IMG/VR virus record: IMGVR_UViG_2585427743_000015
DNA length: 37,170 nucleotides
From: a virus
Lineage: Duplodnaviria > Heunggongvirae > Uroviricota > Caudoviricetes
Direction: 5' to 3' (one strand)
Shown piece after piece: positions 12,404 through 12,839 of this stretch (position 1 is the first letter of the stretch; every line of letters starts with the position of its first letter). A program made the position numbers and the translations under genes. Under the pieces are notes generated by a model. The model was not told the DNA's origin. It ran no database searches and worked only from the letters and a program-made list of their open reading frames with translations.

Positions 12404-12562
12404 TGGTCTTGGGTTCTGGGGACTAAACGTGCTGCATCTAATTTAATCACACACATAACCTACTGATAAAGATCATTTTTATTCCTGTCTCTCACCAAAT
12501 GGGTATTGAGAATGACCACCTGAACACACTGAAATAAAGGCGAAAATCATGTATCGCTCTAC

Positions 12563-12592
12563 TGCACAATAGTGCACAAATTTGCACAATTT
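12563..12592. repeat. Three phased direct repeats TGCACAA at 10-bp spacing
   Basis: 'TGCACAATAG TGCACAAATT TGCACAATTT' at 12563-12592, about 160-190 bp upstream of the DUF3800-like gene start. Confidence 0.5.
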
Positions 12593-12839
12593 TTTTGAAG
12601 GACTTTTTGCCCTTCCGGCCCGCGTGGCGGCTGGATCCGTCAGGGATCCGTGCGTGCACAAAAAAACGCGTTTTTTCTGCGCGCAGGTGACGGGGGAACA
12701 GCCCGCGTTTCAGGGGGTAAATAGCGTTCCCTTAACGATGTCGCAGCGACACGACAGAATGGCCGTATTTCTCACGCTGAGCGTGAAAAATACGTGAGGG
12801 ATTCTGGTTTGATGGGGTGAAAGGTAAGGCCGTCAAAAT

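Follow-up and report, generated by a model that had tools for sequence, protein, structure and literature searches.

A phased repeat array in the left part of the predicted cos site of a P88-like, P2-family prophage

The IMG/VR virus record IMGVR_UViG_2585427743_000015, a stretch of 37,170 nucleotides that we refer to as the window, contains a cluster of short repeats and palindromes at 12540-12700, to the right of a cargo gene of the DUF3800 family. A first-pass annotation, made from the letters alone, had assigned this cluster to the promoter region of that gene and had proposed that its helical phasing reflects cooperative binding of a regulator, or else an origin or a packaging site. Our analysis favours the last of these options. 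The interval is almost certainly the left, recognition part of the cos (cohesive-end) site of a P88-like prophage of the P2 family, and the repeats themselves are likely to be an array of terminase-binding sites. The explanation that best accounts for the whole, and which we consider quite likely, is that the repeated words are bound by a terminase made up of gpM and gpP, which would introduce staggered nicks at 12686-12704. We read the block as a packaging site because of its position between a cargo hotspot and the portal gene, its homology to experimentally defined cohesive ends, and the fixed distances between repeats and cut that are kept family-wide. As such, it is an expected kind of element that had gone unannotated rather than a new kind, with a layout common to the P2 phage family.

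A predicted P2-type cohesive end beside the repeats

The sequence features from which the annotation set out are all present. TGCACAA occurs at 12563-12569, 12573-12579 and 12583-12589, at exactly 10-bp spacing; the direct repeat GGATCCGT stands at 12633-12640 and 12644-12651, 11 bp apart; and the 16-bp palindrome AAAAAACGCGTTTTTT at 12661-12676 is perfect. The 27-nt triple-TGCACAA pattern, allowing up to two mismatches, is found once in the window and in none of 100 dinucleotide-preserving shuffles; the single word is not enriched window-wide (7 copies, with 9.3 expected). Three further features had been overlooked: a fourth copy of TGCACAA (12655-12661), at a distance of 72 bp from the third; a larger imperfect palindrome of which AAAAAACGCGTTTTTT is the core, with arms at 12651-12665 and 12671-12685 that are 87% complementary; and, at the right edge of the annotated interval, a G+C-rich 19-mer at 12686-12704, which is the predicted cohesive end.

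The position of the block is that of a P2-family packaging site. By blastn, the window belongs to the P88 group (Xuanwuvirus), a P2-family prophage, and its P2-type genes were recognised with Pfam (GPA, portal, gpP, GPO, capsid and gpM). The repeats sit between a variable cargo hotspot, 3' of gene A, and the portal gene. In P2, 186 and P4 the cos site likewise lies between hotspot and portal, and the records of P2, 186 and PSP3 annotate their cohesive ends there. The defence hotspots of P2 and P4 have been described as directly adjoining cos (Rousset et al., PMC9122126).

The 19-mer itself, GGTGACGGGGGAACAGCCC, is homologous to the known ends of the family. It matches the P2 end GGCGAGGCGGGGAAAGCAC at 13 of 19 positions in an ungapped alignment, and aligns also with the ends of 186, P4 and phiCTX. 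It conforms to the P2-family end type, a G+C-rich 19-nt sequence beginning GGCGNGGCGGGG and preceded by GCGNGC(A/G), the window having GCGCGCA at this point. Intermediate lineages, reading GGCGAGGCGGGGGAGCAAG, bridge the window and the P2 ends: loci with a TGCACAA array fall into three sequence groups, one of which reads GCGCGCA, GGCGAGGCGGGGGAGCAAG and CGCGCGC in succession, and this, judged by its sequence, is plainly a cohesive end of the P2 type. The determined end of phiRSA1, which begins GGTGAGGCGGGG, provides a precedent for a GGTG start (PMC5694545).

The block is phage backbone, not cargo

Homology to P88-like phages starts at 12562/12563, the first base of repeat 1, with a single exception, a phage that has the same cargo. 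The repeats therefore belong to the conserved backbone and not to the cargo module. With the distant Enterobacter phage phiT5282H (Novemvirus), only 12563-12707 is held in common, at 76% identity, and the block common to other genera ends at 12706-12717, just past the predicted cohesive end. These limits indicate that the selected unit extends from the first repeat to the end of the 19-mer.

On the left, the block at 12563-12707 is joined to at least 34 unrelated types of flank. The nearest gene may point in either direction, and 15 of the 34 types have a terminator-like hairpin immediately next to repeat 1. Among complete E. coli genomes, 1111 of 5426 carry the block beside a hypervariable hotspot, and in none of the 1111 is it annotated; the 1112 E. 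coli records that have it retain, without exception, at least 80% of 12555-12720.

A pattern scan of viral contigs for the triple repeat gave at least 120 loci. Among the 120 listed, a minus-strand portal homologue accompanies the array in 107, usually at a distance of 375-475 bp to its right; another 8 are truncated and 5 are unrelated. As to P4-like satellites with a TGCACAA-type cos, all loci from the pattern scan whose right flank is long enough carry a portal gene, the 5 unrelated ones excepted, and the E. coli search gives the best place in each record. The 5 unrelated loci are contigs (L027, L032, L063, L080 and L128) that have the triple TGCACAA at 10-bp spacing and no portal homologue nearby; L063 carries the palindromic TTGTGCACAA three times, and L032 has tandem 10-mers at the start of its contig. 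A separate curiosity is NZ_JBQPOM010000071.1 (L143), labelled 'Vagococcus sp. WN89Y', a Firmicute, which has the same cos block, a portal 100% identical to that of the window and a ParM 97% identical; here the block is probably Enterobacterales DNA that contaminates the assembly.

A fixed geometry with a word that changes by lineage

Relative to the predicted cut, the words of the window start at -123, -113, -103 and -31. The corresponding TGCAT words start at -123, -111, -101 and -29 in P2 and at -124, -111, -101 and -29 in P4, and 186 shows the same layout. We examined how general this arrangement is with 80 loci gathered via alignment of the portal protein, one genome per species, which avoids the circularity of a repeat-based search. 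Placing cosN, the nicking site, by motif in these loci yielded 62 non-redundant cos regions, including those of P2, 186, P4 and phiCTX. The 5-mers of the proximal site recur in the distal interval at a mean of 7.1 positions, compared with 1.5 and 1.9 in two control intervals (Wilcoxon p about 3e-10). Phased chains, with copies of a proximal 5-mer 9-14 bp apart, were present in 39 of the 62 loci, 26 of which had at least three copies; no such chain appeared in the 62 control intervals. The distal copies cluster at -123, -111 and -101, and the third distal word is separated from the proximal word by 72 ± 1 bp in the window, in P2, in P4 and in nearly all lineages.

Within each lineage the same word is found at the distal and the proximal sites, and it is the identity of the word that differs among lineages. 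It is TGCACAA in P88-like phages of Citrobacter, Serratia, Enterobacter and Pantoea, CACAA/GCACA in phages of Xenorhabdus and Morganella, GCATG/TGCAT in most P2-like phages and P4, (T/C)GCAG in phiCTX, and CCGTCA/GGCA in Comamonadaceae. Such a concerted change at both sites, together with the fixed geometry, is as expected of a single lineage-specific reader. In the P88 lineage, TGCACAA takes the place that TGCAT/GCATG has in P2, 186 and P4. P4, which lacks a terminase of its own, carries the same word array, and this points to the packaging enzyme. Cos is also reported to be the only region that P4 has in common with P2-like phages (PMC9122126).

The literature describes the conserved cos as a 55-bp core, from about -30 to +25. 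The counterpart of this core is present in the window (approximately 12655-12710) as a proximal word with its A run, a spacer and the cohesive end, with the architecture kept and the sequence diverged: the window has TGCACAAAAAAA at -31, where P2, 186 and P4 have TGCATTAAAAC at -29. By comparison of sequences, P2-family cos sites reach well beyond the 55-bp core, with a fixed geometry that is shared and a word that varies by lineage. Our literature search found no statement on a minimal cos beyond the 55-bp core, on the direction of packaging, or on DNA binding by gpP or gpM.

Between the words, conservation is uneven. TTTTTTTGA, in the T tracts that follow the third word, is kept by most loci of the TGCACAA type and by two of the sequence groups, A and B; the tracts are probably an intrinsically bent or flexible spacer. 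Nearly every lineage has a G+C-rich dyad of variable sequence at -80 to -55; that of the window occupies the place of the CGCCAG..CTGGCG-type dyad in 186, P4 and most P2-like cos regions. The direct repeat GGATCCGT, the second copy of which overlaps a degenerate upstream proximal word (GTGCG), is not kept in phiT5282H-like or other lineages, where relatives read GGATCTGCACGTGCACAAAAA. Similarly, the perfect palindrome is confined to the P88 lineage; all that other lineages retain of this stretch is the A run and, ahead of the cut, GCGNGCA. The 35-bp imperfect palindrome that contains the perfect one could fold as a hairpin (-17.6 kcal/mol, z -2.5). We conclude that the GGATCCGT repeat and the 16-bp palindrome fill the spacer in a lineage-specific way and are not conserved signals; they would serve to shape or stiffen it rather than being read as sequence.

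Our proposal for how the site works is as follows. During lytic growth, the terminase (gpM and gpP) would bind the helically phased words, namely the three distal ones (-123, -113, -103) and one proximal word, or a degenerate pair, at -31. The T and A tracts and the G+C-rich dyads between the words would shape the DNA, and the terminase would thus be placed to make staggered nicks at 12686-12704, leaving 19-nt cohesive ends, after which the genome would be packaged. The helical phasing and cooperative binding that the annotation had suggested are reasonable in this light, with the qualification that they point to a terminase and not to a transcription regulator. We infer both the exact cut positions and the DNA end that is packaged first. 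The features of the block and its surroundings are collected in Table 1.

Table 1. Coordinates of the packaging-site features and neighbouring genes in the window
Feature	Position	Strand	Basis or remark
GPA, replication protein	7191-10013	+	Pfam
ParM/StbB cassette: ParM (StbA_N/ParM) gene and Plasmid_stab_B (StbB/ParR-like) gene	10090-11365	+	Pfam
DUF3800 cargo gene	11597-12403	-	Pfam DUF3800, E 3.5e-10
Distal array, three TGCACAA words	12563-12589	+	starts at -123, -113 and -103 from the predicted cut site
T tracts following the third word: T7 at 12590-96, T5 at 12604-08	12590-12608	+	sequence
G+C-rich segment with short dyad CCGC-GTG-GCGG (12620-12630)	12610-12632		sequence
GGATCCGT direct repeat with two GATC sites	12633-12651	+	P88 lineage only
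Imperfect 35-bp palindrome from the proximal word to the cut site, ending in the conserved GCGCGCA	12651-12685		sequence
Proximal word TGCACAA with A run	12655-12666	+	starts at -31; equivalent of CTGCATTAAAAC
Predicted cosN, 19-nt cohesive end GGTGACGGGGGAACAGCCC	12686-12704	+	homology; cuts predicted to ±1-2 nt
Strong hairpin GGGGCATAAA/TTTATGCCCC 3' of the portal gene	12962-12988	-	-22.2 kcal/mol, z -4.7
Portal protein, gpQ homologue	13014-14060	-	Pfam Phage_portal; 45-47% identity to P2 Q and 186 W
Large terminase gpP	14060-15811	-	Pfam: N-terminal helix-turn-helix (HTH), then ATPase, then RNaseH-like nuclease domain
gpP N-terminal HTH (Terminase_5/HTH_23)	aa 6-63 = 15623-15796	-	Pfam
GPO and P2-type capsid	15933-17877	+	Pfam
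Small terminase gpM (Phage_term_smal)	17923-18723	+	Pfam E 5.6e-37

Terminase segments that follow the word

The candidate readers of the words are gpM and the N-terminal HTH of gpP. No solved structure of gpM was found. The N-terminus of gpP aligns to an HTH of the TetR type, although weakly (E 7e-4), with GINPNTIYAW as the recognition helix. Among the phages with TGCACAA words, the HTH is the most conserved part of gpP, at 78-91% identity compared with 69-80% for the ATPase, and outside this group the order is reversed, at about 42% for the HTH compared with 51% for the ATPase. The helix motif changes along with the word: NT[ILV]Y[AS]W goes with CACAA-type words, those of the Morganella and Xenorhabdus phages included, ATVHSW with GCATG, PTVQSW with TGCAT, and [ST]T[VL][QH]GWKDAE with CCGTCA/GGCA.

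We used a partial Mantel test to relate the divergence of individual protein segments to word class, with control for divergence of the gpP ATPase. The gpP HTH (r 0.32) and segments of gpM (r 0.26-0.31) were associated with word class (p 0.001), and the gpP nuclease domain was not (r 0.03). These comparisons fit a specificity module of the terminase that covaries with the word, and we take them no further than that.

A bolder version, which we put forward tentatively and regard as rather doubtful, is that the word array constitutes a specificity code of P2-family terminases, read at least in part by the TetR-like HTH of gpP. The three distal sites and the one or two proximal sites, 72 bp apart, would then nucleate several protomers of gpP (and gpM) on one face of bent cos DNA beside the cut site. 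If this were true, the words of a lineage would determine which genome or satellite a helper can package, and exchanging word and helix together could redirect the specificity.

As an observation on gpM itself, the P88-like protein ends in a long tail rich in Lys, Thr and Arg (ending in KKTTRKPATRKTTATQKAKRG; residues ~225-266, window 18600-18723), which had no aligned counterpart in most of the P2-family loci set beside it and which may bind DNA non-specifically.

Weighing the cos reading against its difficulties and alternatives

Several observations weigh against a terminase-bound cos array or limit how far it can be taken. The cut site of this phage is placed by homology, and no public P88-like phage record begins at the predicted end. 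The three distal words lie outside the 55-bp core that the literature calls conserved, and, in contrast to the cosB of phage λ, the repeats and the terminase genes are on opposite sides of cosN. Phages of Morganella and Xenorhabdus keep CACAA-type words with an HTH that is only ~42% identical. The covariation described above still contains an effect of shared ancestry, and it does not tell gpM and the gpP HTH apart. Finally, the record LR595891 (P88_4B11) is cut at window 12607|12608 rather than at the predicted cosN. Its end-start junction, however, restores the homologous sequence without gap or overlap. A sister record from the same project, LR595870.1 (Escherichia virus P2_2H1), begins, in bases 1-31, with GTCGGCAGCGTCAGATGTGTATAAGAGACAG and ends, in the last ~22 bases, with CTGTCTCTTATACACATCTGAC, and its phage part starts 9 nt inside the cohesive end; the two terminal sequences we take to be Nextera adapter, which makes the record a raw contig. 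Given the seamless junction and the raw-contig sister record, we read the start of LR595891 as probably an arbitrary cut of a circular assembly and not a physical DNA end. Taken alone, this cut is the sole observation at odds with the proposed reading.

Promoter function was the annotation's leading idea, with the repeats as operator or activator sites, or as -35-type elements, for the leftward DUF3800 gene. To call them upstream of this gene is correct as geometry, the gene being on the minus strand and its start codon 160 bp away on the coding side, yet it misleads, as homology begins exactly at repeat 1. There are two other reasons to take the idea seriously. In P2, the transcript starts annotated for old-tin fall 26-28 bp leftward of the first TGCAT word, so that a distal array can accommodate a cargo promoter; in the P2 record (33424-33484) the old-tin -35 region falls between words 1 and 2, such that promoter and array overlap, an arrangement that could couple hotspot expression to terminase occupancy. 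In addition, the minus strand of the window reads TTGT-N6-TTGT-N6-TTGT (12566-12589), which fits the TTGYN6TTGY consensus annotated for CII sites in phage 434, and blastn gives a weak match (E 1e-3) between the repeats and the CII site region of that phage. We judged this likeness to be due to chance or composition, as the flank that would carry the -10 element is not conserved. Nor does the wider evidence favour regulator sites in a cargo promoter: the left flanks are of 34 unrelated types with genes on either strand, 15 of them with a terminator-like hairpin directly against repeat 1, no sigma-70-type hexamer pair was found in 12250-13100, the words keep a fixed distance to cosN and not to any gene, and in P4 the array is downstream of psu. 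We consider a promoter role quite unlikely. That the repeats are a terminator or insulator is very improbable. According to this idea, repeats 2 and 3 with the T7 run would halt cargo transcription before cos, and a consensus scan did flag GTGCACAAATTTGCAC followed by AATTTTTTTG as terminator-like. The stem, however, has no more than 5 bp (-7.7 kcal/mol, z -1.1), and 26 of 200 shuffled sequences fold equally well. In many loci a strong terminator already stands immediately before repeat 1, and arrays of the P2 type lack the T run. In a scan of 12300-13100 for structured RNA, no Rfam covariance model matched up to E = 1.

Short phased direct repeats are also typical of centromeres and of replication iterons, and ParM and Plasmid_stab_B genes lie 1.2 kb to the left. 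The least probable of the explanations considered is nevertheless that the repeats are the parC centromere of this cassette or origin iterons. The parC of ParMR systems lies upstream of parM, whereas the array follows the cassette at a distance of 1.2 kb; of 60 loci with a TGCACAA array 21 have no ParM, and among 64 portal-selected loci of the same architecture 63 lack it; and P2, 186 and P4 have the array without ParMR. The origin option mentioned in the annotation fares no better, since the same architecture is found in P2, 186, P4 and phiCTX, and the P2-type replication origin lies inside gene A. It is the packaging option that agrees with the position, the cohesive-end homology and the fixed word-cut distances. 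Within that option, it is conceivable, though unlikely, that the words belong to cos without being the site at which terminase initiates, and are instead a cosQ-like signal for termination or end processing, or a scaffold for a host DNA-bending protein. In the mature genome the words would stand at the right end, cosN having separated them from the Q, P and M genes; the T and A tracts and dyads suggest shaped DNA, and only the 55-bp core is called conserved in the literature. A host scaffold is harder to reconcile with a word that varies among phage lineages in the same host group (TGCACAA and TGCAT, both in E. coli phages), a change that therefore favours a phage-encoded reader over a host one. 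Furthermore, no match to the consensus WATCARNNNNTTR of integration host factor (IHF), with up to one mismatch, is present in 12540-12720, the nearest being at 12456-12468 in non-conserved cargo DNA. As for cosQ, P2 packages monomeric circles, and therefore initiation and termination share cos and the distinction is partly semantic.

Comparison with other packaging sites

With the cos sites of P2, 186, PSP3 and P4, the window shares the position between hotspot and portal, the homologous 19-nt end and the GCGNGCA before the cut; with those of P2, 186 and P4 it shares in addition the proximal word and A run at ~-30, distal words at ~-123/-112/-102, the 72-bp gap and the G+C-rich dyad. Ziermann and Calendar reportedly delimited the 55-bp conserved core of P2-family cos in 1990, and CTGCATTAAAAC, the counterpart of the proximal word, forms the left edge of this core in P2 and P4. 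In the P2 family, the gpM/gpP terminase cleaves cos in a staggered manner that leaves 5' overhangs, a step required for packaging. The differences are that the word is TGCACAA and not TGCAT/GCATG, that the cohesive end begins with GGTGACG and has one indel in comparison with that of P2, and that the TGCGCGC box after the cut in P2 is reduced to GCG. The GGATCCGT repeat, its two GATC sites and the perfect A6CGCGT6 palindrome are found in the window and are absent from P2, 186 and P4. The ends of the window are predicted from sequence, whereas those of P2, 186, P4 and phiCTX are experimentally defined.

The phiCTX record (AB008550) annotates a 'region 3 containing R4, R5, R6 repeats' around cos, so repeats near cos had been noticed before in the P2 family. 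Like the window, phiCTX has words, here (T/C)GCAG, about 100-135 bp to the left of the cut, CGCAGAAAGTGCAGAAAAAG next to the cut, and a dyad, CCAGCAG/CTGCTGG, between the distal and proximal words. It differs in the word itself, in its 21-nt cohesive end, and in having attP and ctx beside cos.

The cosB of phage λ consists of the sites R3-I1-R2-R1; the winged-helix domain of the small terminase gpNu1 binds the repeats, and IHF acts with it at a site between them. As a functional analogy, both systems would have in common a short word repeated next to the nicking site, DNA bending between the copies and anchoring of terminase. There is no homology of sequence or protein, and the reader here may be an HTH fused to the large subunit. 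Moreover, cosB lies between cosN and the terminase genes, on the end packaged first, whereas in the window cosN separates the array from Q, P and M. The pac sites of P1, with GATC-containing hexamers, and of SPP1, with pacL and pacR boxes, belong to headful systems. They resemble the present site in having phased short repeats read by terminase, and the P88 lineage has two GATC of its own (12634 and 12645); they differ in the headful mode, and the GATC sites are not conserved across the P2 family.

Implications

Labelling the 145-bp block as cos fixes the true boundary of the defence/cargo hotspot in P88-like prophages and predicts the ends of the virion genome. The family geometry (~-123, -112, -102 and -30, with the 72-bp gap), combined with the lineage word, gives a testable model of terminase specificity and of the matching of helpers to satellites. 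Longer cos flanks have been found to raise P2 cosmid transduction by about 10^4 (PMC9594776). An extended cos may explain this gain of orders of magnitude in P2/P4 cosmid transduction, which is of relevance to phage-based delivery vectors.

Neighbouring genes and minor observations

The strong hairpin 3' of the portal gene is the counterpart of P2 tQ, terminators being annotated at the same place in both P2 and 186. Between cos and this terminator lies a 42-aa open reading frame (window 12817-12945), called 'hypothetical protein' in LR595891, whose DNA is kept in P88-like phages and not in other genera. Some relatives (H200-H211, L101, L110 and L115) have an insertion of ~600 bp, also annotated as 'hypothetical protein', at the 3' end of the portal gene (window 13017-13039), so that cos has a small variable spot on this side as well. 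On the hotspot side, the ParM/StbB genes are a plasmid-type partition cassette inside a P2-like prophage, situated between gene A and the cargo hotspot, and the cassette is found in 39 of 60 P88-like loci with enough left flank.

Within the cos region, the two GATC (Dam) sites are at 12634-12637 and 12645-12648, 11 bp apart. The cos regions of P2, 186 and P4 have none, and a different GATC pair (GCATGATCgtttgaGGATC) directly follows the third distal word in many GCATG-type cos regions (L161, L174, L184 and others). The 8-mer GCCCGCGT occurs twice, at 12618-12625 and 12701-12708, 83 bp apart, and the right-hand copy takes in the 3' end of the predicted cohesive end.

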